From a virus (lineage: Duplodnaviria > Heunggongvirae > Uroviricota > Caudoviricetes), in the IMG/VR virus record IMGVR_UViG_2675903661_000019, positions 1 to 12,930 of that record: a stretch of DNA of 12,930 nt. One strand, 5' to 3'. Under the pieces are notes generated by a model, which was not told the origin of the DNA, made no database searches, and was given only the letters and a program-made list of their open reading frames with translations. Positions within the stretch are counted from its first letter, which is position 1. Each line of letters opens with the position of its first letter. The position numbers and the translations under genes were made by a program. This document shows positions 1 through 12,930 of the stretch, one piece after another.

Positions 1-173
1 TGTCAGTTATCATCTTCGGTTACGGTTATCGGCAGAACGCCCTGCCGCTGACAAGAGCTTATTTGCCTGACCAATCTACTCCACATGATAGATAACTATC
101 ATTTATAACATTTCATTGATTAGTCTTTATTTTTCATTGCGTTACAAATAACACCCCAGTCAAAAACAGCGAA

Positions 174-197
174 ATTAACTACACCATTAACTACACC
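174..197. repeat. tandem direct repeat 2 x ATTAACTACACC
   Basis: Perfect 12-bp tandem duplication at 174-185 and 186-197. Confidence 0.6.
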
Positions 198-203
198 GTT
201 TCA

Positions 204-231
204 CGAACAATATCGAACAACCACGAACAAA
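204..231. repeat. three helically phased GAACAA repeats, second copy of the capsid-leader motif
   Basis: GAACAA at 205, 215, 225 (10-bp spacing); 17-bp identity with 7618-7634; preceded by a tandem 12-mer at 174-197. Confidence 0.6.
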
Positions 232-291
232 GATCAACACGCTTTAACCGTTATCATTTTCCGGCTATCCGTTATGAAGCTGGTGGATGTT

Positions 292-319
292 CCCCGATAT
301 GGGGATCCCCATAACGGGG
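292..319. repeat. 28-bp near-perfect palindrome
   Basis: CCCCGATATGGGGATCCCCATAACGGGG, centred on GGATCC, followed by a T7 run at 329-335. Confidence 0.5.
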
Positions 320-580
320 CTACCTGGCTTTTTTTCCGGTTAACCTTTAATCAGGCTGGTGGGCTTTACCTGTTTTGTAGGAGTGGTCATTCTGCCCGAC
401 CGCGCATTTTTGCGCTATCGGGCATATCAAACAGTTACCTCGCCGACTTCCTCAAATTGAGGTTTCCGAAAATATCAGCGGGTTAGCGATTAAGCTGACG
501 AGTAATTAAACTGCGAAAATTTCGTAGTTTGTGAATATATTCCGGCCTGCTGGTTAACAGTCCTCAGATGTGAGGGATGT

Positions 581-626
581 AGCCAGCGCAATTTTGCGCT
601 TTGCTTTAATCTCAGTAAGTTACCGC
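581..626. repeat. 46-bp direct repeat, copy 1 (contains GCGCAATTTTGCGCT hairpin motif)
   Basis: AGCCAGCGCAATTTTGCGCTTTGCTTTAATCTCAGTAAGTTACCGC; 45/46 identical to 717-762. Confidence 0.7.
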
Positions 627-716
627 GCCAATTTCCGCAGTCTGTGTAAATTGGGAAGAATCAACGGGTTAGGCCTTAATCATCTGCGTAAACATAAGTA
701 ATCATAATGATCATTC

Positions 717-762
717 AGCCAGCGCAATTTTGCGCTTTGCTTTAATCTCAGTGAGTTACCGC
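717..762. repeat. 46-bp direct repeat, copy 2 (overlaps 3' end of the 93-aa ORF)
   Basis: AGCCAGCGCAATTTTGCGCTTTGCTTTAATCTCAGTGAGTTACCGC; a third, shorter copy of the GCGCA-N5-TGCGCT core is at 402-416. Confidence 0.7.
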
Positions 763-1037
763 CGCAACCGTTCCGGCTTCTTCCAGTGGTACGTGATTTT
801 CTCCTTCTCCCGATACATCTCCACGCGGCGACGGTATGTCAGCAACTCAAGGACTCTGGTTCGTATGTTGCGCATATCCACGCCGTTAAGCTCAATACCA
901 TCACGGCGCATCACCTCAGCAACAACACGCGCATAATTTTCGGCTGTCACGCTGTCCGGCTGCGTGGTCTGTTCGTCAGCCTGCTGGCTGATTCCAGAGA
1001 CGCGGCGGATTAATCGCAGTATTTCGGCTTCTGTCAT
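756..1037 (-). CDS. hypothetical protein (93 aa) immediately downstream of large terminase
   Basis: Minus-strand ORF; ATG at 1037 lies 14 nt after the terL stop with GAGG about 9 nt upstream; basic C-terminus; last codons overlap the 46-bp direct repeat copy at 717-762. No family recognised. Confidence 0.45.
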   Translation of the reverse strand: MTEAEILRLIRRVSGISQQADEQTTQPDSVTAENYARVVAEVMRRDGIELNGVDMRNIRTRVLELLTYRRRVEMYREKEKITYHWKKPERLRR

Positions 1038-1050
1038 GCTGCTGACCTCA

Positions 1051-2712
1051 TTACACCCCGCTAAATTCTTCCAGTTTCTGGCGGTGGCTGTCGCTTATAT
1101 CAAAAGCAAAATCCTCATGCTCTGCCTGGAATGTACCAAACGCCATCAGCGCCGCTACGCTCGGGTCTATCTTGTTCGGTGATTTTTTCTTGTTCGGCTT
1201 GATATTGGCGTTCGCGTCACTCTGCATCACGACGTTACTCATCGACCAGGACAACACCGGATCGCCACGATGCACAATCACCCTGCGGTTAACAAAAACT
1301 TCGAACGATTTCGCCGCCGGACTGAATCTGAGGTAGGTTTGCGGGAACGGCTCCACCTCAAAACCAGCCCCCTGTAATTGCGTCCTGAGATGCGTGGCGT
1401 TCCACGTATCAAAGCCCACCAGCCTGATATTAAATTTCTCCGCATCCTGCATGATGTCATCTCTGATCCGGTCGTAATCAATGCAGTCACCTGGCGTTGT
1501 GCGTATCCAGCCCGCTTTAGCCCACTGGCGATAGACAGCGCGGTTTTTATTGGCGGGGTTCTGTAGCTGGAACTCCGGCAGATAATGACGGGAAACCAGC
1601 ATGATATTTTTACCGACCGGAAAGGCATAGCACACGCTGGAAATATCGCTGGTTGATGATAAGTCCAGCCCCGCGTAACACTCCTGCCCGTGTAAATCTT
1701 CCTCCGTGAACGTTCCGGCACACTCAGCCCATGCGCCGTTACCCATCCACGGGGTAGCCCCCTGGCACCAGATATTAAATCGCTTTGTCATCATCTCCAC
1801 CCATTGCGACGGAATACCCCGCGCTTTCTGGATGGTTGAGGCCAGTTTTTCACGATCCACGGAAACATCGATGTTAGGGTTAGCCTTTATCCACATCGCC
1901 GGATCATCAACCTCGTTTTCGTCGTCCAGCTCGTAAATCAGCACAAAAATTGAATCGTTGACCTCTTCGCCGTCCAGGATCTGGCAGCAATAATCATAGT
2001 GCTGTTTACAGGTTGAAACGACGTTACTGCCCGATGTGGTAATGGCAAATAACAGCCCTTCGGGACGTGCGCCCATCCCCAGCTCAAGCGCGGAATAAAC
2101 GCCGTTATCGGGGTGTAGGTGGTATTCGTCCACGATGGAAAGGCTGGGGTTTGTTCCCTCGATGGTTGCCGCTTTTGCTGCCAGCGGCTTTAACAGGCTG
2201 TTGCTTTTCGGGTGCATCACCTTGTGGGCCTGAATATTCACCCGCCTGCGTAACGGTCGGGATAAAAGGCACATCTGACGCGCATCATCAAAAACGATCC
2301 GCGCCTGGTCACGGCTCACCGCTGCGGTGTAAATATCCTGCTGCCCGTTCTCCATAATCAGAAACCAGTTAGCCAGAATCGCGGCGGTCGTGGATTTCGC
2401 ATTTTTGCGCGGCACTTCGATAAAGGCGCTCGTGTATTTGCGCCGTCCGGTGGCCTTAACCTTAAAGCCGAGGATGCACGCAAAGGCGAACTGCTGCCAC
2501 GGCTCCAGCTCAATGGGTCTGCCACGCATCGGCCCTTTTACGTGCGGGCACACCCTGGAAAAGGCAATAAACCGCTCCACAACCTCACGATCGAACGTGT
2601 AAAGGGGGCTTTCAAGGTCCGAAAAGTACCGTTTAACGGCCTGTTTCAGCCGTTTACAGGCCGGAATTTTGCCCGTTTTTACGTCTTCTGCGTACTTATT
2701 CCAGGCGGTCAA
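1051..2712 (-). CDS. terL: terminase large subunit (HK97-like, Terminase_1 type)
   Basis: 553-aa ORF; deviant Walker A-like PRKNAKST and Walker B-like LSIVDEYH near the N-terminus, long C-terminal nuclease-size region; apparent TTG start at 2712 with AGAGGA about 5 nt upstream; overlaps terS 3' end by 17 nt. Confidence 0.85.
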   Translation of the reverse strand: MTAWNKYAEDVKTGKIPACKRLKQAVKRYFSDLESPLYTFDREVVERFIAFSRVCPHVKGPMRGRPIELEPWQQFAFACILGFKVKATGRRKYTSAFIEVPRKNAKSTTAAILANWFLIMENGQQDIYTAAVSRDQARIVFDDARQMCLLSRPLRRRVNIQAHKVMHPKSNSLLKPLAAKAATIEGTNPSLSIVDEYHLHPDNGVYSALELGMGARPEGLLFAITTSGSNVVSTCKQHYDYCCQILDGEEVNDSIFVLIYELDDENEVDDPAMWIKANPNIDVSVDREKLASTIQKARGIPSQWVEMMTKRFNIWCQGATPWMGNGAWAECAGTFTEEDLHGQECYAGLDLSSTSDISSVCYAFPVGKNIMLVSRHYLPEFQLQNPANKNRAVYRQWAKAGWIRTTPGDCIDYDRIRDDIMQDAEKFNIRLVGFDTWNATHLRTQLQGAGFEVEPFPQTYLRFSPAAKSFEVFVNRRVIVHRGDPVLSWSMSNVVMQSDANANIKPNKKKSPNKIDPSVAALMAFGTFQAEHEDFAFDISDSHRQKLEEFSGV

Positions 2713-3052
2713 GCTCGTCCTCTTCTTCTGTTTCCGGTGGATTTTTACGGCGGCTTATCGGGTCAAAACCGAGCAAGGAGGCCATTTTTATCATCACTCT
2801 TTCAGCGTCGGATTTTGCGCTTAATGCGGGGTTTCTGCTCTCGCCGCCCTGACTGTTAACAATGATGAACCCGCGCGCCGCAAGGTCTGCAACGGCTTTC
2901 CGGTAAATGGAGTAGTTGACACAATACAGTTCCAGATTGCTCCAGTCGGCGGGGGTCAGGTCTCCCCGTTCCGCAAGCTGCCGCGATTTTTCCCGCCACT
3001 GCTTCACGGCGATATCATCCAGGTAGGCGGGGGCTTTCGGTGGTCTTGCCAT
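2696..3052 (-). CDS. terS: terminase small subunit (P27-like)
   Basis: 118-aa ORF directly upstream of and overlapping terL; N-terminal MARPPKAP and acidic C-terminal tail typical of P27-family small terminases paired with HNH and HK97-type TerL. Confidence 0.75.
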   Translation of the reverse strand: MARPPKAPAYLDDIAVKQWREKSRQLAERGDLTPADWSNLELYCVNYSIYRKAVADLAARGFIIVNSQGGESRNPALSAKSDAERVMIKMASLLGFDPISRRKNPPETEEEDELDRLE

Positions 3053-3120
3053 GCTTATTTTTTCGCCAGATTATTTTTCAAAAAATTCCCGTGCATAAAA
3101 ATTTGAGGAGGCGTTCGGTT

Positions 3121-3170
3121 CTGGGCGGGGTCGGGTTCGTCCTGAAAACTCCCCCCACCCCGTCCGGCTG
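3121..3170. other. candidate cos site region between HNH and terS
   Basis: GC-rich imperfect dyad GGGCGGGGTCGGG ... CCCCCCACCCCG inside the 289-bp non-coding gap between HNH stop (3342) and terS start (3052), the usual cos position in HNH-dependent cos-type HK97-like modules. Confidence 0.3.
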
Positions 3171-3341
3171 CCTCATCAGCGATTGCGGAAACATTCCATA
3201 ACCTCGCGGTCACGGTCGTTTAATCGCGTCGCTGTGATGCGTTCTGCGCGTCCTGATGCTTTATCTTTATGCCCTGTTTCCTGTGCCTTCCATGCGTCAC
3301 GCTGCCTTATAAGTCCACGGATAAGGCGGTTTTGTTCCCGC

Positions 3342-3782
3342 TCATTCATCAGCGCCATACATCCAGTTATTGCGGTTAGCGGCCCGTTCTTCCTCCTCAC
3401 GGAATCCACCCGCAGCACGCTTGTTTTTTGTGGACGGATCAAGCCATTTCGTTTTCTGGTTATGACACGCCTGGCACAATGGCTGATGATTCCACTCAGG
3501 CCAGAAGAGAACATCATTACCGCCATCGATTGGGATAATGTGATCCACCACCACGGCGGGCGTGTATATTCCTTTTTCCAGGCAATGCGCACATAACGGG
3601 TTTTTACTCAGATACATGGCGCGGTATTTCTCCCACTGCCTCGTATACCCTCGCTCCCTGCTGCTGCCTCTCCGGCTGTCCTGCTGCTGGCGTGCGCTGC
3701 GTCTGTGCTCCTCACACTTGCCGGACTTCACGCGCCTGTTGCAGCCTGGTTCTGTACATCGTCTTAATGGTTGCCACGGCAT
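3342..3782 (-). CDS. HNH endonuclease (packaging-associated)
   Basis: 146-aa ORF with Cys-rich N-terminus (CTEPGC, CEEH) and HNH core VVDHIIPIDGGND...LCQACHNQKT; sits upstream of terS as in cos-type HK97-like packaging modules; start overlaps stop of the upstream connector gene. Confidence 0.85.
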   Translation of the reverse strand: MPWQPLRRCTEPGCNRRVKSGKCEEHRRSARQQQDSRRGSSRERGYTRQWEKYRAMYLSKNPLCAHCLEKGIYTPAVVVDHIIPIDGGNDVLFWPEWNHQPLCQACHNQKTKWLDPSTKNKRAAGGFREEEERAANRNNWMYGADE

Positions 3783-4078
3783 CAGTACACCCCCACATCA
3801 CGGTAAGCCGTCCAGAGTGCGCCAATCGTCATGGGTACGTGTGTTTTTGCGTTATCCGCGACAATCTGGCGATTCTCATACAGGTGAGCGATAAACATCA
3901 TGCAGCCAATCTTTATGGCTGGCGTGAACTCCAGCCCGTCATCAAAGCGCCTGCCTATGTGTATCTGGCACGCCTCAAGCGATGCGGCAATGTATCCGCT
4001 GATTAACTGGTCTTCCTCGTCGCCATCGATGCGGCAATGGAGTTTCACTTCTTCCAGGGTGATAAGTTCTTCTGTCAT
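3782..4078 (-). CDS. head-tail connector protein, gp6-like
   Basis: 98-aa ORF beginning MTEELITLEEVKLHCRIDGDEEDQLISGYIAAS, the characteristic N-terminal signature of gp6-like head-tail connector proteins; ATGA start/stop overlap with the upstream gene. Confidence 0.75.
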   Translation of the reverse strand: MTEELITLEEVKLHCRIDGDEEDQLISGYIAASLEACQIHIGRRFDDGLEFTPAIKIGCMMFIAHLYENRQIVADNAKTHVPMTIGALWTAYRDVGVY

Positions 4079-4413
4079 TTTTCCGCGCCCTCACGACAAA
4101 GAATTTCAAGGCGTGTCCTGGCGGCATCCGGCAGCGGCTGCCCGATGATATTCAGTACACGCCCCGCCAGCGGCCCCGTATTGACCTTTATCCGGCTGGT
4201 GGCGTTGATGTCCTTCCGGTACCGTATCCAGATCCTTACGGTACCAATCGCCAGCTCTGCACCCGATGAAATGGCCTCCTTGCTGCTGACCATGTTCACG
4301 CTTGCCCAGAGTGTGTGACCGTCCTCCCACGTTTCGAGTATTTCGCCCGTCATGGCTCTGGTCTGTTTCAGGGTCTGAATCGTTACCCTGTCACGCAGTC
4401 GCCCTATGTTCAT
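4075..4413 (-). CDS. head closure / head-tail joining protein (gp7 or SPP1 gp16-like)
   Basis: ORF extends to 4455, but the internal ATG at 4413 gives MNIGRLRDRVTIQ..., the typical N-terminus for this family, and overlaps the portal stop as ATGA. IRYRKDI and LEILCREG motifs fit head-closure proteins. Start choice is uncertain. Confidence 0.7.
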   Translation of the reverse strand: MNIGRLRDRVTIQTLKQTRAMTGEILETWEDGHTLWASVNMVSSKEAISSGAELAIGTVRIWIRYRKDINATSRIKVNTGPLAGRVLNIIGQPLPDAARTRLEILCREGAEK

Positions 4414-5621
4414 TCCGGTTTTTCTCCCTCGCTGATTTTTACTTCCTGTTTCCATACCTGGCTGAACTCATCACCACCATCACGCGGAGACAACCCTTCT
4501 CGTTCGCGGGCTTCGTTCGGGCACATAACACCGGATTTGATGCCTCGCTCATAGGTGGCAAAGCGTTCGCCAGGTGTGGCCCGTAACAGGTCCGCGCTGT
4601 CAAACTCCACCTGATACCGGATACCAGGTACAGGCGAGACCACCAGCAAGGCGTTTTTTATCTGCTGCTCAAAGTTCGCCAGCCACGGGCGCATCGTCAT
4701 GGTGAGAAATGCGCGGCTTGCCTCGCTGAAATTGCTGTAGGTGCTGTTGCTGTATTCCTGCAGAAAAATCGGCGAGACGTTGAACATTCGGGCGATGTCT
4801 TCAATGGTGAAGCGACGGGAGGCCAGCCATTCGGCGTCCTGGTTACTCATGCCCAGCTGCTGGTAACTCATGCCCCCTTCAAGGATGGGCGTTTTTCCGG
4901 CGTTTCTGGCCCCTTTGTAGCGTTCCAGTGCGGCTAATGCCTGTTTGCCTTTCACGCCGTCCAGCCATTCGCCTGACGTGATAACCCCTGCCGCCATCAT
5001 GCCATCACGCATCACGCTCGCGCCGTGGCGTTGTTGGGCCAGCCCAAGCCCCAGCGATTCGCGGCAGATGGTTACAGGTGAGCGCCCCATAAAGCCGTCA
5101 TCCGTGGAGTAACGAAGGTGAAGTACTTCCCACGGTAAATAGTTGCGGGTGTTTCCGGTGTAGGCGTCAGTGATGCAATAGCGCCAGTTGTGTTCTCCTG
5201 TCTGCTCCACGTTCACCGACTGCGGCGGGTAAGGATGTAAAGCCGCCGGAAAACCATCACGCCCCCACTGAATCACCGCGTAAGCATTACCGTTTAACAG
5301 GCAGTGGCGGATCATCATTCGCTTAAACTGGTAGGGGGTTTGCCATGCGTTCGGGCGCTCGTTGAGGATATGATCGACCGGATGAGAATCAAGCCACTCG
5401 CGGGCCTCCTTCCCCTTCTCATTGCGTACCAGGTACAGGTAGCATGGCATAGTAGCCACCGCCTCAGAGATGACCGTGACGGCGTTCATGACGGCGGGGA
5501 GTGATTCCGCTGTCCCCGATGATACGTACTCACCCGCCCCCGTGTTCGATGTGCCAGCCAGCGCCATAAATTCATCAAGCGTCATGCTGCGCTGCTCTTT
5601 TTTTCTTCTGAAAGGCCACAT
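4410..5621 (-). CDS. portal protein (HK97 family)
   Basis: 403-aa ORF, size and sequence character of HK97-type portals; ATG at 5621 is 1 nt after the protease stop and preceded by GGGGGTG; lies between protease and connector genes. Confidence 0.85.
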   Translation of the reverse strand: MWPFRRKKEQRSMTLDEFMALAGTSNTGAGEYVSSGTAESLPAVMNAVTVISEAVATMPCYLYLVRNEKGKEAREWLDSHPVDHILNERPNAWQTPYQFKRMMIRHCLLNGNAYAVIQWGRDGFPAALHPYPPQSVNVEQTGEHNWRYCITDAYTGNTRNYLPWEVLHLRYSTDDGFMGRSPVTICRESLGLGLAQQRHGASVMRDGMMAAGVITSGEWLDGVKGKQALAALERYKGARNAGKTPILEGGMSYQQLGMSNQDAEWLASRRFTIEDIARMFNVSPIFLQEYSNSTYSNFSEASRAFLTMTMRPWLANFEQQIKNALLVVSPVPGIRYQVEFDSADLLRATPGERFATYERGIKSGVMCPNEAREREGLSPRDGGDEFSQVWKQEVKISEGEKPE

Positions 5622-5622
5622 A

Positions 5623-6180
5623 TCACACCCCCGCTAAATCCGCCCACCAGCGGCGATTATCCGCACGCGGCATTTTTTCGGGGTGCTGCTCATACAGGGA
5701 ACGGCGGGCCAGCTCCACGCCGGAATCGGGGTAAGCCGGTACGGATGTAACGGTAATTTCGTACAGTTCCGCCACCAGCACGGTGCGCACGCATGGATCT
5801 GTTGTGGTATCCCATACATCCTTACGGGAACGAAAGCCAAAGCTCATGCCGGATATATCACCACGTTTAACCAGTTCGATAACGTCACGCCCTGTGCTGG
5901 TATCCGGTGGGGTAAGTTCAAAGCGTAACCCTGTGTCGTCCTCTTCCAGTTTCAGCGTGCCGGAACGGGTGCGCCCCAGTAACATGCTGTGGTCATGCTC
6001 ATACAGGCCGCGAACGTCATTACCCGCCGCAAGCCACTCAGTAAACGCCCCCCGCTGGAATTTTTCGTAAAACTCCCCCCATAACAGTTCCGAAAGGTTA
6101 TCCCAGCGAACAACGTAGCCTGTAAGCGTGTTGCTGGCGCTGGTGGTGATTTCCGATGACCGGATTTCCATACTCTTCAT
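5623..6180 (-). CDS. prohead maturation protease (HK97 gp4-like)
   Basis: ORF is open to 6294, but the ATG at 6180 has GGGTGA about 8 nt upstream and lies after the capsid stop. Protein carries LYEHDHSMLLGRT and GMSFGF motifs typical of HK97-family prohead proteases. Confidence 0.8.
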   Translation of the reverse strand: MKSMEIRSSEITTSASNTLTGYVVRWDNLSELLWGEFYEKFQRGAFTEWLAAGNDVRGLYEHDHSMLLGRTRSGTLKLEEDDTGLRFELTPPDTSTGRDVIELVKRGDISGMSFGFRSRKDVWDTTTDPCVRTVLVAELYEITVTSVPAYPDSGVELARRSLYEQHPEKMPRADNRRWWADLAGV

Positions 6181-6206
6181 AATTTTTTTCACCCATAAAA
6201 CACTAA

Positions 6207-6224
6207 AGGGGCTTTTTAGCCCCT
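6207..6224 (-). promoter_or_regulatory. GC-rich hairpin between capsid and protease genes (possible attenuator)
   Basis: Minus strand AGGGGC-TAAAAA-GCCCCT followed by an interrupted T-rich tract (TTAGTGTTTTA), in the 55-nt gap between capsid stop and protease start. Confidence 0.4.
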
Positions 6225-6235
6225 TCTGTATGCTG

Positions 6236-7393
6236 TTAATCGTCGTCCTGTGGCAGTTCCAGAATCTTGATCGCGTTCGAATCCACCACGCCACCGCCTA
6301 AATATTTTTGCGTGAAAATTTTGATGAATCCTGGTTCTGTCAGGTTGTCCGGTCTGGTGCGAACACCTGTTTCGTGATCAACGATGTAGTAACCGCGTTT
6401 AAAGTCGCCCAGGGCAATAACGTTATCCGGCATAAACTCCAGATATTCGACCGGAAGGCCCAGCAACGTATCAGGATCACCCGCCTGTAAACGGTCACGC
6501 CAGATGTAATCACCGTTCGCGTTCTTCACCTTCTGGAGTTTTGCCGCCGTCGTGGAGTTAACCACCCAGACCGCGTTTTTGCGGTATTTTTTACGTAATG
6601 CAAATTTCAGGTCGATCAGCGGGTCCGCAGATGTCCACGCCAGAGATTCGGAAGGTTTAATTACCTGCAACGTACCAAAATCACGCTCTTTGTCGTTCTT
6701 CTCTGCACGGGGTACGGATAAAAAGCCTTTTGCTTTTTTGTCACCGTCGCCCACAACCAGATCGCTTTCTTCGGTTTCCGTGAAGGTGTCGCCAATCTCG
6801 CCCGTCAGCCATGAAAGGATGTCCACATCGGAAAAATCCACGATTTCCTGCGTGGTGCGCGGGTACGCATAGACCGGATACAGCTTAATGCTCACCTCGT
6901 TAATCTGCGGGGTGCTGGTCTGTTCGCGTGCCTTACCCTCTTCACCGTGGTTAACGGTCGCACCGCCAGCGGAAACAAGCTGCTTAAACTCGTTGCTGCT
7001 GATTTTCTTCACGGTACAGATGCGGCGCATGGTGGATTCATCCGTCAGCATTCGCATGATTTCGGTGTTCAGTTCGGGGATAACGGTATAACCACCATCA
7101 GCGGGAACGCCTGTACTCAATGCGCGGGTTTCACCTGTCAGAATGTAGTGACGTAGTTCGGCGGGGTCAGTGGTCTGGCTGTTTTTGCCTGGTTTACTGC
7201 GCTCTTCGTCAGCAACGGCCTCAAGGCGGGAGATGTCTTTATCGAGTGATTCAGCTTTAGCGCGTAATTCGTCAAATTTTGCGCCCTCAGCATCGTTAAG
7301 ACTGCGGTTTTCTTTTTCCGCGTTCTCCAGCATGTCGCGCATCTGATTTTTAATGGCGGTTTTCTGCTGGCGTAATTCGATTATTCTCGGCAT
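6236..7393 (-). CDS. major capsid protein (HK97 fold) with N-terminal coiled-coil delta/scaffold-like region
   Basis: 385-aa ORF; charged, coiled-coil-like first ~70 aa (EKENRSLNDAEGAKFDELRAKAESLDKDISRLEAVADEE) followed by a capsid-size body; ATG at 7393. Confidence 0.85.
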   Translation of the reverse strand: MPRIIELRQQKTAIKNQMRDMLENAEKENRSLNDAEGAKFDELRAKAESLDKDISRLEAVADEERSKPGKNSQTTDPAELRHYILTGETRALSTGVPADGGYTVIPELNTEIMRMLTDESTMRRICTVKKISSNEFKQLVSAGGATVNHGEEGKAREQTSTPQINEVSIKLYPVYAYPRTTQEIVDFSDVDILSWLTGEIGDTFTETEESDLVVGDGDKKAKGFLSVPRAEKNDKERDFGTLQVIKPSESLAWTSADPLIDLKFALRKKYRKNAVWVVNSTTAAKLQKVKNANGDYIWRDRLQAGDPDTLLGLPVEYLEFMPDNVIALGDFKRGYYIVDHETGVRTRPDNLTEPGFIKIFTQKYLGGGVVDSNAIKILELPQDDD

Positions 7394-7430
7394 AAAAAAA
7401 GTCCTGGGGTTAAGTAAGGAACTCCAGGAC
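7394..7430 (-). promoter_or_regulatory. hairpin plus U7 tract immediately upstream of the capsid start codon, sequestering the SD
   Basis: Minus strand reads GTCCTGG-(16 nt loop)-CCAGGAC-TTTTTTT-ATG; the only SD-like element (AGGA) lies in the 3' arm of the stem. Confidence 0.5.
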
Positions 7431-7483
7431 GCGGCAAAAACTCAACCGTTTTTCATAAGGGAATCAGCAATCGCACCGATCGT

Positions 7484-7531
7484 TTTCCCGCCTGGTAATG
7501 AATATTGGCGAGCACATTAACAGGCGGGAAA
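7484..7531. promoter_or_regulatory. 11-bp perfect inverted repeat with 26-bp spacer in capsid operon leader
   Basis: TTTCCCGCCTG at 7484-7494 and CAGGCGGGAAA at 7521-7531. Confidence 0.45.
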
Positions 7532-7603
7532 GTGGCCCCAGCGTCCTGGCACCACGGGCGAGAATAATCATGATTCAGTTCGGGTAAAATATGCCGATCC
7601 GCT

Positions 7604-7634
7604 CAGTGAACAACGTGGAACAACCACGAACAAA
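7604..7634. repeat. three helically phased GAACAA repeats upstream of capsid operon
   Basis: GAACAA at 7608, 7618, 7628 (exact 10-bp spacing); 17-bp core GAACAACCACGAACAAA (7618-7634) is identical to 215-231. Confidence 0.6.
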
Positions 7635-7640
7635 TAATTT

Positions 7641-7674
7641 ACAAAAAATAACAAAAAGCCGGATTGCTCCGGCT
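7641..7674 (-). terminator. intrinsic terminator after the 74-aa gene
   Basis: On the minus strand: stem AGCCGGA / TCCGGCT with 4-nt loop, followed by TTTTTGTTATTTTTT; lies 10 nt after the stop at 7685. Confidence 0.75.
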
Positions 7675-7684
7675 GTATGGGTGC

Positions 7685-7909
7685 TCAGTCCCTGATCCCT
7701 TTCAGAAATTCTATCAATGCATCTGTCTGTTCAGGATTTACCGCCAGCATTTCACCGGATAGCGCGCAACGAACAAAACCATGATGATCCTTTTCAATCA
7801 GCGCCCCCGTTTCCAGGAATGCGCGGTAATCAGTGATGTTCATCGTCTCCATGTTGTCAGCATGGTATTTATCACGCTGTTTTAATATCTCATCAAATTT
7901 CGTCGGCAT
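7685..7909 (-). CDS. hypothetical acidic protein (74 aa)
   Basis: ORF is open to 7987, but the ATG at 7909 has GAGGA about 7 nt upstream (MPTKFDEILKQ...). Stop at 7685 is followed by an intrinsic terminator. No family recognised. Confidence 0.5.
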   Translation of the reverse strand: MPTKFDEILKQRDKYHADNMETMNITDYRAFLETGALIEKDHHGFVRCALSGEMLAVNPEQTDALIEFLKGIRD

Positions 7910-8003
7910 TGTTTTTTCCTCTGTTGTGTCTGTTTGTTTCAGATAGTAACTATGCCGGACCGTGACGAAAAGCCAGTAGTGCGCCATACCATTTCAAATG
8001 ACG

Positions 8004-8028
8004 CAAAAAAAGCCGGATTGCTCCGGCT
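8004..8028 (-). terminator. intrinsic terminator after the 82-aa gene (near-identical copy of the 7641-7674 terminator)
   Basis: Same AGCCGGA-GCAA-TCCGGCT hairpin followed by a T7 run on the minus strand; about 24 bp identical to the other copy. Confidence 0.75.
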
Positions 8029-8050
8029 GCGTGGTGTGGTTCTGATATTC

Positions 8051-8299
8051 CTACTCAGCTAATTTGCTCAGCCCCATGTCTGCATAAGTGCGATTTACTG
8101 CATTTCTCAGGTCTGCGTAGTTCTCCGTTGGCGGCTCCGGTGGCCTCTGTGCCTTCCTGGAACATTCCAGCCGTCGCATCGTAACCTGATGCCGTTCCTT
8201 GTCTATCTCCACCAGTTGCATGACTTCACCCCATCGCGCCGACGCCCTCCGGTAAAAGCCTTTTGCCTCGAGTTCCTCCGCTATGCGGTCATGTACCAT
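8051..8299 (-). CDS. hypothetical protein (82 aa)
   Basis: ATG at 8299 is preceded by GAGGGGG, which overlaps the SSB stop codon (TGAGGGGGTGACGATG); ORF ends at 8051 and is followed by an intrinsic terminator. The longer track ORF (to 8419) would overlap SSB by 110 nt. No family recognised. Confidence 0.5.
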   Translation of the reverse strand: MVHDRIAEELEAKGFYRRASARWGEVMQLVEIDKERHQVTMRRLECSRKAQRPPEPPTENYADLRNAVNRTYADMGLSKLAE

Positions 8300-8309
8300 C
8301 GTCACCCCC

Positions 8310-8720
8310 TCAGAACGGAATACCGTCACCGTAAGGGTCATCGCCTCCCGCTGGTGGCTGATTACCCTGTGTGCCTGTGGTTTTGCGTCTGTTCCCGCCA
8401 GGACGTGCCGCACGGGCACTGATTACGCTGTCTGCAATAACCTGATAACCCTGCCGCGTTTCCCCGTTCTGTCCGGTCCACTGGCTGACCTGCATCGTGC
8501 CGGATACGCTGGCAACGTCGCCTTTTTGATGTTTAGCCAGGAAGTCGGCCTGCTTACCAAATGCGATGACCGATAGCCATAACGTAGCCTGCCCATCCTG
8601 CGCCTGACTACATGGCAACGATACCGCCATACGTGCCAGCGTCATTGGTGTGCCCTTGCTGGTCTGTTTTACCTGCGGGTCGTCCACCAGCCGCCCGTAA
8701 GCTGCTATCTGTGCTGTCAT
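8310..8720 (-). CDS. ssb: single-stranded DNA-binding protein (SSB-like)
   Basis: 136-aa ORF; OB-fold-like core alignable by eye to E. coli SSB (conserved Trp in SQWTGQNG matching RKWTDQSG), Gly/Pro-rich linker and C-terminal acidic tip DDPYGDGIPF resembling the SSB DDDIPF tail; ATGA overlap with the upstream gene. Confidence 0.75.
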   Translation of the reverse strand: MTAQIAAYGRLVDDPQVKQTSKGTPMTLARMAVSLPCSQAQDGQATLWLSVIAFGKQADFLAKHQKGDVASVSGTMQVSQWTGQNGETRQGYQVIADSVISARAARPGGNRRKTTGTQGNQPPAGGDDPYGDGIPF

Positions 8721-9031
8721 GATTCCACCTCTCCGGTTTTAACGTTGATGGTTGTTACCTGTTCCGCTTCGGCAATCTCCCGTTCTGTCAGCGTGGCAAA
8801 GTTTGCCGCCGCCGTGGTCATGAATGCGCTTATCAGGTCGGGATGTTCCTTCGCGTATCCTTCCCGCGTGTGGCGGTCTATCGTTCTGATTGCCACCTTT
8901 AAGGTGTGCTCAGTCATGTCTAACGCTTTATATTTTGGCTCTGTTCTGTCTCTGCGAATTTTGGTCATTTGTCGCCCCTGATTCATGTTTTCGGCTGGCA
9001 TGTTTGTTAAGTGATTTTGATGTATGCGCAT
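8717..9031 (-). CDS. hypothetical protein (104 aa)
   Basis: ATG at 9031 preceded by GAGGGGG about 9 nt upstream; first gene downstream of the iteron region; translationally coupled to SSB. No family recognised. Confidence 0.5.
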   Translation of the reverse strand: MRIHQNHLTNMPAENMNQGRQMTKIRRDRTEPKYKALDMTEHTLKVAIRTIDRHTREGYAKEHPDLISAFMTTAAANFATLTEREIAEAEQVTTINVKTGEVES

Positions 9032-9078
9032 TTATTTTCACCCCCTCGTTTAAAAAGTTTTTAGTTGTGCCTCCCCCC

Positions 9079-9302
9079 CCTCTACCCATCTACCCGAATG
9101 CTCATCATGTCAGTAATGGCGCGGCTTTCAGCGGGTAGATAGCTTTTTGGGCTCCTCTACCTGCCGTCTACCCTGCTACCTGAAACTGATAAAATCAGGT
9201 AGAAGAGGTAGAGAGCTTTTATTAGCCTTCTACCTGGCCCTCTACCCACTTATCATGTTGAATAATATGTATTTATTTCATTCAGGTAGATGGGGTAGAG
9301 GG
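9079..9302. repeat. iteron array, candidate origin of replication
   Basis: About 12 copies of CCTCTACCC / GGGTAGAGG-type motifs (core TCTACC / GGTAGA) in both orientations within ~220 bp, interspersed with AT-rich stretches (9250-9283), directly downstream of the primase stop at 9316. Confidence 0.7.
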
Positions 9303-9315
9303 CTTTTACAAAAAA

Positions 9316-11070
9316 TTATAAAAACGCGTCGCAATCGTCTGTTGTAATTGCGTTGGTCTGCGTTACTCCCTTAACTTTTCGCGTAATATATTCATGCCCG
9401 TAAACTTTCGCCGCTGGCTTCATGGCCTTGCTGAACTCAGCCACGTTTAGCGGTTTGCTCCTGCCTGCGTATGCCATAAACGCCAGATAGACGCGGTAAA
9501 GGCTGTTCCTGGTCGTGTACTTCACTGAATCGCCACCGCCCCCCATCATCAGGCCGCGCGCTTCCTCCAGAAAATTCAGGAACTGGCAAAACTCAATAAC
9601 CGGATCCGTCTGTTGCTTTATTGCCAGTGCTTCATCACCGTCACGCTGTTCCAGTAGTAAAGCCCGTGCCTTCTCAGGGTCGGTAAAGTTCGCCAGCAAG
9701 CGGCGGATAATAACGGGGATTTCAGCCGCAATCTTTTCCGGTAGTTCCCTGTCTTTTTCGGCCTCACTGACGATATTGTCGAAACGGAAAATCACGCGAC
9801 GACGTGCCACACCTCCGGCCCGTTCGGTGAATATCATCGGGTTATTGTTGGTCGCCAGCACCACCGCCCTGATTACAGCCGTGAAACGCTTTTCGTATTT
9901 CGGGTTAATTTCCACGGGGTCACCGCCCGTGATTTTCTTGATGCCCGTTCCTTCGCCTGTATATTTCGGCTGGTCAGCCAGGACGATAAGACGACTCCCG
10001 ACAACCTGCGCACGTCCACCAGCATCATCAAGCGATGTCATTTCAGCGCTTACCGTGTTCTGTTTCCCTGCCAGAAGGCTGGCTATGTGTGTGAATGTAC
10101 TTTTACCGCTCCCGCCGTCTCCGGTGGCCTCAATAAACATCTGCCAGTCGTACCGGTTCGCCATAATCATGTACAGCGCGGCACATATACGCATCATCTT
10201 GCGCGGGTCTTTTCCGGCTGCGTGCTCAAGCCATTTATGAAAGTTTGGCGCGTTATCGCGGATGTTCTCCCCTGGTGCTGGTGGCGTGTACTCAATACCG
10301 TTGTGCGTGGTGATCCAGTTCTCCGGCGTGTGCGGGGAAAATTCCCCCGTTTTCAGGTCAAGCGCACCATTGGCAAACGGCAGCAAATCGCCGGACGGCT
10401 CGCCCATTGGTTCGGCAATAACTTTTAACGCTTCCACGGCGTTATTGATTACGCGCTTGCTGAAAGTGGCCCTGTGCTCTGAATAGATCGCCACCATTTC
10501 GCGGCTAAGTTCCATTGTACTGACCGGACACCATACCCCGCCGCGCCATACGTGGACGATTTCACTTTCAGGATGTACGCAAATGCCATCAAAGCGCCCG
10601 GCAAGCAGCTGCGCGCGCTCACTGTCCGCCATCTGCGAAAGTTGTGCCTTTTGCTTTACCGGAAGCTCAATGACCAGACCATCAGAAAGATTCTGGCGCT
10701 CACGGGCCAGATATTCGCGCCAGTTCTCCACCTTCTGAACGTGCATTCCCTCAGGGTAAAAATTTGCATCCTGTACGCCTGCCGCCGCCAGTTTCTGACC
10801 AATCGCCTTGATCATTACTGGCTCAAGATGTCCGGCCCTGAATATGCGTACTGATTTTCTGCCTTCCGGCACAATTTGCAGCTTATCCAGTTCGGATAAC
10901 TGCTGCTCCCCAAGCCACACAGGAGGCTCATTATCTCCGGCCATACGCGCGTCATGTTCCTGCCATTGTTTTGCGTGTGACCAGGCATCACTACCCGCAA
11001 AAATAATGACTTCTGTTTCTTTGTGTTTTATGCCGCGTGACTGCTGTTTTACGTTCGGTGCCAGTTTCAT
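9316..11070 (-). CDS. primase/helicase, P4-alpha / D5-like (satellite Pri-Rep type)
   Basis: 584-aa ORF with central P-loop NTPase Walker A GDGGSGKST and Walker B-like LIVLAD, N-terminal primase-like region; ATGA overlap with the upstream 99-aa gene; iteron-rich AT-containing region begins right at its stop. Confidence 0.8.
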   Translation of the reverse strand: MKLAPNVKQQSRGIKHKETEVIIFAGSDAWSHAKQWQEHDARMAGDNEPPVWLGEQQLSELDKLQIVPEGRKSVRIFRAGHLEPVMIKAIGQKLAAAGVQDANFYPEGMHVQKVENWREYLARERQNLSDGLVIELPVKQKAQLSQMADSERAQLLAGRFDGICVHPESEIVHVWRGGVWCPVSTMELSREMVAIYSEHRATFSKRVINNAVEALKVIAEPMGEPSGDLLPFANGALDLKTGEFSPHTPENWITTHNGIEYTPPAPGENIRDNAPNFHKWLEHAAGKDPRKMMRICAALYMIMANRYDWQMFIEATGDGGSGKSTFTHIASLLAGKQNTVSAEMTSLDDAGGRAQVVGSRLIVLADQPKYTGEGTGIKKITGGDPVEINPKYEKRFTAVIRAVVLATNNNPMIFTERAGGVARRRVIFRFDNIVSEAEKDRELPEKIAAEIPVIIRRLLANFTDPEKARALLLEQRDGDEALAIKQQTDPVIEFCQFLNFLEEARGLMMGGGGDSVKYTTRNSLYRVYLAFMAYAGRSKPLNVAEFSKAMKPAAKVYGHEYITRKVKGVTQTNAITTDDCDAFL

Positions 11071-11366
11071 TTTTTACCCCTGAATCCGTTAATCATGGTT
11101 TTCAGCTTCTGGATGTTTTCCCGTGCTCTGGCGTTGCTGGTGGGCACGTTATGCGGCGCGGTCTGTACCAGAGAAAAATCACGCCGGAACTGATAAACAG
11201 GCATCACGCAATCATATTCGTAACCTTCACGGCGGTAAGTTACGCACCGTCCCGCCACACCCTTAATCATTACCGTGCCGCCGTACTGGTCGCGGTAAAT
11301 ATCACCGCGCGTAAATTTAGGGTGAGTGTTGCCACTGGCAGTTAAGCCAGAATATTTAAGTTTCAT
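11067..11366 (-). CDS. hypothetical protein (99 aa)
   Basis: ATG at 11366 with GGAGA about 9 nt upstream; stop overlaps the primase start; position resembles small early genes that precede primase in P4-like elements. No family recognised. Confidence 0.5.
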   Translation of the reverse strand: MKLKYSGLTASGNTHPKFTRGDIYRDQYGGTVMIKGVAGRCVTYRREGYEYDCVMPVYQFRRDFSLVQTAPHNVPTSNARARENIQKLKTMINGFRGKK

Positions 11367-11371
11367 TATTT

Positions 11372-11599
11372 TTATTCTCCGGTGTGGGGCGCTTTATTAT
11401 TTTCGATAATATCCATCGCCTTATCCAGTTCATCAATAACAGGCGATAGTAATGTCTGAATGGCTGCAAACATTAATGACGAAGATTCTTCGCCAGATTC
11501 CGGCGCTTCAATTAATTTGCCTAACAACGCATTCATTTCGCGCGCTTTAATTAATGCGTTTTCAGAATGAATAAGAACATCAAAGGGTATTTTATGCAT
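11372..11599 (-). CDS. hypothetical acidic protein (75 aa)
   Basis: ATG at 11599 preceded by AGGGGGTGA; acidic, helical-looking sequence; first confidently coding gene of the leftward early operon. Confidence 0.5.
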   Translation of the reverse strand: MHKIPFDVLIHSENALIKAREMNALLGKLIEAPESGEESSSLMFAAIQTLLSPVIDELDKAMDIIENNKAPHTGE

Positions 11600-12056
11600 G
11601 ACTCACCCCCTGGCGAATACGGGCGACAAAAATCAGATGTGTGTGCGGCAGCTGGGCGCGTGCTTCGCCTTCTGTTGCTGCCGTGACGGTAAAGAGTGAT
11701 CTTTGTTTTTCCTGGCACTGCATAAAGCGCCAGACAAAGTAAGGGCGTGCGGATACAGCCATGTGAAAGGCTCCCAAAGTGAAATTAAGGAGTCTCGCTA
11801 CTACGCTGCTAAACGGGGTGGCGAGACGTAACAGGGTTAGCAGACTGGCACTTTGGGAACCAGCGAGCGCAAAGGCTCCCCCGTTACGCCCCGCCATAAT
11901 GCGGGTATGGGTAGGCTTACGGACACAAAAAAACCGCATATCGGAATGTAAGCGGCTGTCCGCCAAAGTATTCAGGCTGCTAAACCCGGTCGCCATGTGG
12001 GCGACGGGGGAAGCATACAGCCCCGTTATAATTTTTTGCAAGCGGTTTTTACGCAT
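11592..12056 (-). CDS. candidate ORF (154 aa, very basic), doubtful; may instead be structured leader RNA
   Basis: ATG at 12056 with CAGGGG 8 nt upstream; 3' end overlaps the next start as CATGCATAA. Its last ~50 codons and the downstream junction are duplicated in the preceding segment (12049-12200). Composition (Ala/Arg/Leu/Ser-rich, few acidic residues) is atypical. Confidence 0.25.
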   Translation of the reverse strand: MRKNRLQKIITGLYASPVAHMATGFSSLNTLADSRLHSDMRFFCVRKPTHTRIMAGRNGGAFALAGSQSASLLTLLRLATPFSSVVARLLNFTLGAFHMAVSARPYFVWRFMQCQEKQRSLFTVTAATEGEARAQLPHTHLIFVARIRQGVSHA

Positions 12057-12330
12057 GATGTGACCCCTGACGAATACGGGCGGCAAATACAGCAACACAA
12101 CCAGACGGGCAACGGCTACGCGCTTCGCGTTCCGTCCAGGCGGTTACGTGGATGATTTGAGATTCTCCGGCACTCAGGGCCAGAAAACGCCAGATGTATT
12201 TATTCAGGTTGTGCGAGTCCCGCCCTTGCGGGTGTGTGATATGATTTCTCATAGCTACCTCGATACTTTCGCTATCGTTGGTGGTCAGAGGCTGCGAAAG
12301 GACGGCAATCCTTTTCAGCCTCGTTTGCAT

Positions 12331-12430
12331 TGAGTGATAAACACTCAGCTGGATTCCAGTATAATCACTAAGTGGAATCCACTTCAAGCGTTTTGTTTTG
12401 GTCTTTTTCGTGTATACTGGATTCCAGTAA
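12331..12430. promoter_or_regulatory. divergent overlapping promoters with three TGGAWTCCA palindromic operators
   Basis: TGGATTCCA at 12350-12358 and 12418-12426, TGGAATCCA at 12373-12381; plus-strand -10 TATAAT at 12360-12365 and TATACT at 12413-12418; minus-strand TTGAAG, 18 nt spacer, TATACT (rc of 12358-12387); palindrome GAGTG-ATAAA-CACTC at 12332-12346. Confidence 0.6.
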
Positions 12431-12448
12431 TCACAAAGGGAACCAGAA

Positions 12449-12628
12449 ATGGAAAGAGACCATATCAATAACAAATCACAGAAATTACAGGCTCGCGCCC
12501 CGCATGAAGTTGTTGAGGCTATGGAGCAAGTAAAAGAAACAGGCGAGAGCACTGCGCAATTTATCGTTACAGCCATGCGAGGCGAGATCAAACGCCGCCA
12601 GCGCCGTAAGGCCAAAGAATCAGAATAA
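12449..12628 (+). CDS. small ribbon-helix-helix-like DNA-binding regulator (59 aa)
   Basis: Not in the ORF track (below 60 aa). ATG at 12449 with AAGGGA upstream, TAA at 12626-12628. KLQARAP (beta strand), HEVVEAMEQVKETGESTAQFIVTAM (helix, G-x-S turn, helix) then a basic tail fits the RHH pattern; transcribed divergently from an operator-rich region. Confidence 0.55.
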   Translation: MERDHINNKSQKLQARAPHEVVEAMEQVKETGESTAQFIVTAMRGEIKRRQRRKAKESE

Positions 12629-12685
12629 TCACTATCAGCGCCGTGGTGTGAGGTACTACGGCGCATTGCTTTACAGGGCAGTACC

Positions 12686-12913
12686 ATGACCAACAACACA
12701 CTATCACCAATACAAGACACGCAAACGCAAGATGATGAAATCATCCGGCAAAGGCAGTCAGAAGCCTGCGCCAGAGTTGAGGAAGAACTAACCAGAACAA
12801 AAATACCACCACCAGCGCCGCGCTTAATGCCACCAGAAAAATTTGCCCTTGAAGATTTTGTCGAGAAATACCCACGGCGGTTAAAAGCCACTAAAAACCG
12901 ACCGCCTGGCTGA
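12686..12913 (+). CDS. hypothetical protein (75 aa)
   Basis: ORF downstream of the RHH gene on the same strand; weak SD (AGGG); Pro-rich centre. No family recognised. Confidence 0.4.
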   Translation: MTNNTLSPIQDTQTQDDEIIRQRQSEACARVEEELTRTKIPPPAPRLMPPEKFALEDFVEKYPRRLKATKNRPPG

Positions 12914-12930
12914 TAGCCTTGTCCACCAGC

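Follow-up and report, generated by a model that had tools for sequence, protein, structure and literature searches.

A stretch of Escherichia coli DNA that very probably represents a capsid-forming phage-inducible chromosomal island between cspD and clpS

The DNA analysed here (hereafter, the window) is a stretch of 12,930 nucleotides, positions 1 to 12,930 of the IMG/VR virus record IMGVR_UViG_2675903661_000019. We are highly confident that 12.8 kb of the window belong to a capsid-forming phage-inducible chromosomal island (cf-PICI) of Escherichia coli, 14,984 bp in length, which is integrated between cspD and clpS and would work as the prototype EcCIEDL933 does. A preliminary description, made from the letters alone, had proposed a capsid-forming satellite rather than a complete prophage, and had considered an undescribed relative of the known elements as well. 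The former proposal agrees with our results: the head and packaging modules of the island and of EcCIEDL933 are almost identical. The latter was not borne out. The island is closely related to a published prototype and, as a member of a family that is already described and experimentally characterised, it is not new.

The cf-PICI prototype EcCIEDL933 comes from E. coli O157:H7 EDL933 (Alqurainy et al., 10.1101/2022.09.08.507074; structure and tail piracy, 10.1101/2025.02.11.637232). It is 15.4 kb in length, encodes int, alpA, rep, capsid, protease, portal, connectors, HNH, TerS and TerL, and possesses no tail genes. EcCIEDL933 is induced by the helper phages HK106 and HK446 through alpA. The genes of its packaging module are each required for transfer but not for replication, except that loss of gene 1792 only severely reduces transfer. 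For the transfer, helper tail genes are essential, whereas helper capsid genes are dispensable. The EcCIEDL933 capsid is a 47.5-nm T=4 HK97-fold shell, which is matured by proteolysis, and the adaptor and connector determine which tails can be used (10.1101/2025.02.11.637232). The packaged DNA of cf-PICIs has cohesive ends. Induction via AlpA, small capsids and dependence on helper tails have been shown by experiment only for EcCIEDL933 and a few other cf-PICIs.

We located EcCIEDL933 beside roxA in the EDL933 chromosome (NZ_CP008957.1) and compared it with the window. Window positions 754-8971 are collinear with EcCIEDL933, with 95.35% DNA identity over 8.2 kb. Genes were assigned by Pfam, NCBIfam and PHROG scans of the open reading frames (ORFs) of the window. 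The head and packaging genes in this block are as follows.

756-1037, minus strand: conserved 93-aa ORF of unknown function (orf93) at the operon end (PHROG 1561, 1e-55)
1051-2712, minus strand: large terminase TerL (Pfam TerL_ATPase and TerL_nuclease)
2696-3052, minus strand: small terminase TerS, P27 family (Pfam Terminase_4, 3e-24)
3053-3175, minus strand: 123-bp gap between the 1792-like ORF and terS, putative cohesive-end site (cos), placed by inference
3176-3358, minus strand: 60-aa ORF (orf60), homolog of EcCIEDL933 gene 1792 (PHROG 3173)
3342-3782, minus strand: HNH endonuclease, terminase accessory protein (Pfam HNH)
3782-4078, minus strand: gp6-like head-tail connector (Pfam Phage_connect_1; TIGR01560)
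4075-4413, minus strand: head closure protein, that is, the head-tail adaptor (Pfam Phage_HCP; TIGR01563)
4410-5621, minus strand: portal (Pfam Phage_portal, 2.5e-90)
5623-6180, minus strand: HK97-family prohead serine protease (Pfam Peptidase_S78, 5.8e-48; coordinates from the gene call of contig L014, described below)
6236-7393, minus strand: HK97-fold major capsid protein (Pfam Phage_capsid, 1.7e-61)

The products of these genes are very similar to those of the prototype. The identities are 99.0% for capsid, 98.9% for protease, 98.8% for portal, 96.4% for adaptor, 99.0% for connector, 99.2% for TerS, 98.2% for TerL and 100% for the single-strand DNA-binding protein (SSB), and are lower for HNH (88.4%), the gene 1792 homolog (93.3%) and orf93 (88.2%). 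The counterparts have equal lengths throughout. The capsid protein is identical at 381 of 385 residues to the deposited EcCIEDL933 capsid model (PDB 9GYI). Gene order is the same in the two islands (orf83, SSB and PerC, followed by capsid, protease, portal, adaptor, connector, HNH, 1792, TerS, TerL and orf93), their sizes are similar (15.4 kb and 15.0 kb) and neither carries tail or lysis genes. Within the shared block the identity is patchy and falls to 83-89% in HNH and part of TerL. The lowest value in the block, 74%, was observed in the 200-nt bin 8000-8199, which comprises the 3′ part of PerC and the downstream spacer.

In the preliminary description, an SSB, HK97-type capsid, protease, portal, two connector proteins, HNH, TerS and TerL had been read from the translations, and Pfam matched all of them. 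The same description had found no tail, baseplate, lysis or integrase ORFs; in our Pfam and PHROG scans, likewise, no ORF of the window matched any family of tail, baseplate, holin, lysin or integrase proteins. It had also been correct that nothing but the 93-aa ORF and a repeat-bearing non-coding end, about 650 bp in length, comes after terL. A counterpart of orf93 also follows terS in classical PICIs.

The limits of the element were determined from a public E. coli contig (L014; GCA_012152415.1, AARTWS010000001.1), which contains the entire window without gaps and differs from it at 2 of the 12,930 bases. The window corresponds to L014 positions 8141-21070. Comparison of L014 with the empty site of strain K-12 gave an island of 14,984 bp in the cspD-clpS intergenic region. 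The gene order in L014 is macA-macB-cspD, integrase, AlpA, two small genes noted on the minus strand, the Icd-like genes, orf75, DUF4222, primase, orf83, SSB, PerC, orf100, capsid, protease, portal, closure protein, connector, HNH, orf60, TerS, TerL, orf93 and clpS-clpA. The tyrosine integrase (412 aa; Arm-DNA-bind_3 and Phage_integrase domains) and the AlpA-type regulator (L014 7817-8011; 64 aa, Phage_AlpA domain, 130 bp past the window edge) are located just past window position 12930, and this end is the only part of the island that the window lacks. At the other end, the following features were found.

1-85, no strand: E. coli chromosome, not island, directly upstream of the clpS start codon
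86-106, no strand: attachment site (att) core of attR, one of the two copies of an imperfect 21-bp direct repeat (coding strand ATAAATGATAGTTATCTATCA, 106-86)
107-755, no strand: non-coding right arm of the island, with two integrase arm-type motifs and a 46-nt direct repeat

The span of the preliminary description (1-12930) takes in the leftmost 106 bases, which are not island DNA. These bases are 99% identical to K-12 922807-922912, immediately upstream of clpS, whose start in L014 is one base outside window position 1, and the last 21 of them are the att core. Integrase and att sites had been expected outside the window; this holds for the integrase, but one att site is inside, at 86-106. 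The core is ATAGATGATAGTTATTTATCA at the L014 attL junction and ATAGATGATAGTTATCTATCA at the empty attB of K-12, and both island junctions in L014 align to the empty site with a 21-bp overlap. Two mismatches in the core place the predicted crossover within ATGATAGTTAT. The core (K-12 NC_000913.3 922807-922827) overlaps the last codons and TGA stop codon of yljB, which encodes a small protein, and the yljB reading frame stays intact in the attL copy. Because no tRNA or tmRNA gene was found in the window, the att site is not a tRNA gene. Our literature search gave nothing relevant that joins a PICI with cspD or clpS.

The cspD-clpS island was compared with the cfPICI model of SatelliteFinder and with the definition of Alqurainy et al. 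It possesses integrase, AlpA, primase and origin, its own capsid and protease, HNH, TerS and TerL within an att-bounded unit of satellite size, and the forbidden components (tail and holin/lysis genes) are absent from the element.

The replication module and its accessory genes occupy the following positions.

8051-8299, minus strand: PerC-family regulator (Pfam PerC, 8e-35)
8310-8720, minus strand: SSB (Pfam SSB)
8717-8968, minus strand: conserved 83-aa ORF, orf83 (PHROG 1231, 2e-52, covering the last 83 residues)
9081-9299, no strand: iteron array with 11 TCTACCY copies, probable replication origin
9316-11070, minus strand: primase-helicase (pri-rep), 584 aa, P4 family and D5-like (Pfam D5_N, DUF5906 and Pox_D5)
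11067-11366, minus strand: DUF4222 protein (Pfam DUF4222, 2e-23)
11372-11599, minus strand: 75-aa ORF (orf75), whose start overlaps the stop codon of an Icd-like ORF (PHROG 2196)

The P4-family primase-helicase with the Walker A motif GDGGSGKST, as read in the preliminary description, was recovered: the translation includes this motif, and the protein barely passes the NCBIfam model TIGR01613 "phage/plasmid primase, P4 family" (109.1 bits versus a cut-off of 108.7). The iteron array reported directly after the primase was also recovered. All 11 TCTACCY matches of the window lie inside 9081-9299, whereas 1.38 would be expected in the whole window, and none of 200 shuffles reached 11 matches. 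The copies are present in both orientations about an AT-rich stretch, and the array adjoins the primase gene (11070-9316). This array is the probable replication origin. The orf83 product would be 104 aa from an upstream ATG at 9031, and the L014 call is 83 aa. PerC is a common accessory gene in Gram-negative PICIs, and PICI PerC-like proteins have been reported either to silence LEE (locus of enterocyte effacement) expression or to have no effect (PMC11773190).

Outside the shared block, the island differs from EcCIEDL933. The att site is cspD-clpS instead of roxA-phoQ, and the integrase and AlpA are 78% and 66% identical, respectively, to those of EcCIEDL933. The replication protein here is the 584-aa D5_N/DUF5906 primase, whereas EcCIEDL933 encodes a 710-aa DUF927 protein; the two are alike only in the N-terminal 163 aa (82%). 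Moreover, the window carries a C4-type antisense RNA gene and two Icd-like ORFs, whereas no C4 match in EcCIEDL933 reached the gathering threshold. The second Icd-like protein (67 aa) is 85% identical to the Icd-like protein of EcCIEDL933.

In contrast, this replication half is shared with classical Gram-negative PICIs of the EcCICFT073 type (L003 and L007-L013 in our set). Their left half contains int, alpA, Icd-like genes with or without C4, DUF4222, pri-rep, iterons, orf83 and SSB, with PerC in some, and the 93-aa terminal ORF is also present. In L007-L013 the primase is 100% identical to that of the window. We take this identity as a clear instance of replication-module exchange between the satellite families, and module exchange between PICIs and cf-PICIs has already been described in the literature. 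The head genes are different. L007-L013 encode a Phage_cap_E capsid-like remodelling protein, an Nu1-type TerS and mostly an HDPD decoration protein; classical PICIs use helper heads and lack the portal, adaptor, connector, HNH and TerL present here. SatelliteFinder does not allow portal, adaptor or connector in a classical PICI, and the window contains all three genes. In the three of these islands scanned with Rfam (L007, L010 and L011), the island adjoins a tRNA gene at another chromosomal site. Because a classical PICI with a DUF927 replication protein (L003; E. coli N10, NZ_CM165902.1, 9001-19221) occupies the same cspD-clpS attB, this site is used by both satellite families.

A megablast search of 5,426 complete E. 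coli genomes found islands covering at least 80% of the window in 129 complete E. coli genomes, with 92-97% identity. Two of them were inspected, and their att sites are phoQ/roxA and tqsA. Both have an integrase and a helix-turn-helix regulator at one end and chromosomal genes right after terL-orf93 at the other. Among phage records, the capsid of full-size phages is at most 40% identical to that of the window, in agreement with the published distance between cf-PICI genes and phage genes. Capsids above 40% came only from 10-16.5 kb genomes or short unannotated fragments, namely vB_KppS-Ant, Pasteurella Pmp8 and Pmp7, a fragment from Salmonella and the end of a Klebsiella record of 106 kb. 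The closest "phage" records are satellite-sized (LR881103.1, OR544139.1 and OR544138.1: vB_KppS-Ant, 16.5 kb; Pmp8, 15.3 kb; Pmp7, 10.7 kb), and these three are probably cf-PICIs deposited as phages. HK97-like temperate siphoviruses, including the helper HK106, resemble the island in their HK97-fold capsid, S78 protease, portal, closure and gp6-like proteins and in cos packaging by TerS and TerL that depends on HNH, whereas their tail, lysis and phage lysogeny genes are absent here. The EcCIEDL933 capsid is T=4, whereas that of the helper is T=7.

Upstream of the replication genes, the window contains a C4/Icd unit (11592-12018), the one mildly new lead found here, with a further Icd-like ORF upstream of it.

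11592-11762, minus strand: 56-aa Icd-like ORF (NCBIfam phage_ICD_like, 1.7e-14)
11814-11901, minus strand: C4-type antisense RNA gene (full-length match to Rfam RF01695, E = 1.5e-12, 71.1 bits versus a gathering score of 45)
11969-12018, minus strand: upstream a1/b1-type C4 target sites (Rfam RF03163, 45.5 bits, just below the gathering score of 46.7, E = 5.6e-9)
12049-12252, minus strand: 67-aa second Icd-like ORF, located upstream of the C4 unit (NCBIfam phage_ICD_like, 4.5e-18)

The C4 loop UUCCCAAAG has its complement at 11780-11771. A motif search gave a second loop-complement pair downstream of C4, CGUUUAGCAG at 11815-11806 and ACUUUGGGAG at 11780-11771, and ACUUUGGGAG contains the GGGAG Shine-Dalgarno sequence of the 56-aa Icd-like ORF. 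The stop codon of this ORF overlaps the ATG of orf75, which is followed by DUF4222 and the primase. In the immI region of phage P1, target sites and the antisense RNA are followed by targets over the icd ribosome-binding site, and icd is coupled to the downstream genes. The unit in the window has the same gene order as P1/P7 immI (c4-icd-ant) and is also similar to the CI RNA immunity of P4. The downstream genes differ: they are orf75, DUF4222 and primase here, and the antirepressor in P1/P7. Because the layout matches the P1 immI region, it suggests that the C4 RNA gates expression of the replication genes. This proposal was built on the Rfam matches, the loop-motif complements and the gene order, and duplex energies were not used for it.

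C4 was found in four of the six other related islands scanned, cf-PICI and classical alike. A working P1 immI-like switch, in which C4 RNA masks the icd ribosome-binding site, may exist in a subset of E. coli PICIs and cf-PICIs that includes this island but not EcCIEDL933; we regard this as a tentative idea that is somewhat more likely to fail than to hold. No literature tying C4 or Icd-like genes to PICIs was found in a search that was short on most subscription-journal papers. Several other candidates in this region were rejected. A sub-threshold isrK match (11927-12005; 36.4 bits versus a gathering score of 50) overlaps the a1/b1 sites and was counted as the same C4-related signal rather than as another RNA. 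The minus-strand ORFs 12891-12049 (280 aa) and 12098-11592 (168 aa) match the family only in their C-terminal Icd-like parts, and the latter runs through the C4 RNA gene. A 154-aa "Icd-like" ORF, which is called in L014 and annotated in a related island (L001), probably crosses the RNA gene and is probably over-extended.

Could the window be a decayed HK97-like prophage, a dead remnant from which tail, lysis and lysogeny genes have been deleted? The head and packaging genes do come from ordinary phage families, and the tail and lysis genes are missing, as such a remnant would have it. The preliminary description had named contiguous tail, baseplate and lysis genes in the flanks as the mark of an ordinary prophage; in L014 none is present on the macB-cspD side or the clpS-clpA side, and tail, lysis and phage replication/lysogeny modules are absent from both the window and these flanks. 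Decay itself is difficult to reconcile with the nine packaging genes, which are all intact and have the lengths of those in the functional prototype. An intact integrase and matching att repeats delimit the unit, which abuts cspD and clpS directly, with chromosome on both sides. Furthermore, 129 complete genomes carry the same compact architecture, which in the three contexts examined occupies three different att sites. The capsid is not more than 40% identical to that of any full-size phage, and alpA, pri-rep and the origin are of the PICI type rather than a phage replication/lysogeny module. We therefore consider a prophage remnant very improbable.

A still less probable explanation, to which we give hardly any weight, is that two elements are adjacent, a classical PICI or P4-like replication island and a separate head and packaging cassette. 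In its favour, the primase is 100% identical in classical PICIs that carry a different morphogenesis module, and the identity to EcCIEDL933 stops at the primase. These same facts indicate that replication and head modules are exchangeable, and cf-PICI left halves identical to those of classical PICIs have been published as a normal feature of the family. There is no second junction or att-like repeat between the halves, and the orf83-SSB-PerC block joins them likewise in EcCIEDL933 and in classical PICIs. A separate primase and origin had also been raised in the preliminary description; because one att pair and one integrase enclose both modules in the 14,984-bp unit, the primase is not part of a separate element. 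Least probable of all, and close to negligible in our judgement, is a P4-like satellite that reshapes helper capsids and does not make its own. The primase passes the "P4 family" model and a C4/CI-type antisense RNA precedes the replication genes, but no ORF matches Sid, Psu, Delta or Epsilon, the complete head and terminase set that the island encodes is absent from P4, and the capsid is 99% identical to that of the cf-PICI prototype. Of the features tested for a P4-like satellite, the P4-family primase domain is the sole one in common.

Several points weigh against the reading of this island as a cf-PICI that works as EcCIEDL933 does. The integrase and alpA are known only from the near-identical contig L014, not from the window. 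Induction, small capsids and tail use are extrapolated here from EcCIEDL933 through the 96-99% identity of the capsid, protease, portal, adaptor, connector and terminase proteins. In HK97-type phages whose packaging depends on HNH, cos lies immediately upstream of terS, and because of this the cos was put in 3053-3175; its position is inferred. Because HNH (88%), orf93 (88%), AlpA (66%), integrase (78%) and the replication protein diverge from those of EcCIEDL933, the specificity for the induction helper may differ. Finally, for the C4 step, the whole-molecule duplex energies of C4 with the proposed targets were no better than those with shuffled targets.

Taking the cf-PICI reading, we propose that the island would work as follows. 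A helper siphovirus would switch on AlpA, and the island would be excised by its own integrase. Replication would then start at the iteron origin by the P4-family primase-helicase, with the island's own SSB assisting. The replication genes would probably also be gated by a P1 immI-like C4 RNA over the icd ribosome-binding site, with icd translationally coupled to orf75, DUF4222 and primase. Small T=4 HK97-fold heads would be formed from the island's own capsid protein, S78 protease and portal, and its own DNA would be packaged at its own cos by HNH, TerS, TerL and the gene 1792 homolog. The adaptor and connector would close the head and dock it onto helper tails, so that the helper would contribute tails alone to the virion. 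The adaptor (96%) and connector (99%) are nearly identical to their EcCIEDL933 counterparts, which makes HK106-type tails the likely partner.

In the right arm (107-762), the two arm-type motifs, TTAACTACACC on the plus strand, lie within 173-198. In the 21.7-kb L014 locus, the motif GGTGTAGTTAA is confined to one copy near attL and two near attR, a distribution that fits integrase arm-type sites. The 205 bp from 107 to 311 are 98% identical to the arm of the classical PICI that strain N10 carries at this attB, and the remaining arm is a patchwork common to the arms of classical PICIs and cf-PICIs at several att sites. The two copies of the 46-nt direct repeat are located at 581-626 and 717-762, the second entering orf93 by 7 nt. 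Each copy holds a palindromic hairpin resembling a plus-strand terminator, and about 90 bp between the copies are missing in the classical PICIs L007-L010 and L013. A plus-strand ORF at 274-486 was rejected, as the L014 gene calls do not support it.

The preliminary description had placed the genes in one co-directional array. All the genes that it named are indeed on the minus strand, but the right end has two small genes that run along the plus strand. These genes, together with one further ORF in the capsid region, are as follows.

7685-7987, minus strand: 100-aa ORF (orf100) of unknown function (PHROG 1957)
12449-12628, plus strand: YlcI/YnfO-family small protein, divergent (NCBIfam NF041551, 2.4e-20)
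12686-12913, plus strand: 75-aa ORF of unknown function, with alpA as the next gene (L014 gene call)

The plus-strand 75-aa ORF had no family match in Pfam or PHROGs. Divergent promoter-like sites at 12338-12387 separate the plus-strand YlcI/YnfO gene from the minus-strand Icd-like genes, and the near-palindrome CTGGAATCCAG occurs in two copies in 12338-12430. This pair may be an operator. Identical terminator-like hairpins, each consisting of AGCCGGAGCAATCCGGCT and then a T run, flank the 100-aa ORF at 8028-8011 and 7674-7657 (minus strand), and in this arrangement it resembles a self-contained inserted cassette. A terminator scan also gave a terminator-like hairpin 3′ of the capsid gene at 6226-6205 (minus strand).

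As a discovery, this island carries little weight: cf-PICIs were described in 2022-2023 and are routinely detected by SatelliteFinder (969 elements in that study). It is a worked example in which a reading of the sequence without tools correctly separated a capsid-forming satellite from a prophage. For the biology of the family, it illustrates module shuffling, in that a prototype-like head and packaging module is combined with a different integrase and attB and with a replication and regulation module shared with classical PICIs. The prototype-like adaptor and connector predict the use of HK106-type tails. The C4/Icd unit is a small, testable lead on replication control in some PICIs. If the C4 switch is real, it would be an RNA-based layer of replication control on top of AlpA, and it would possibly give cross-talk with P1/P7-type phages.

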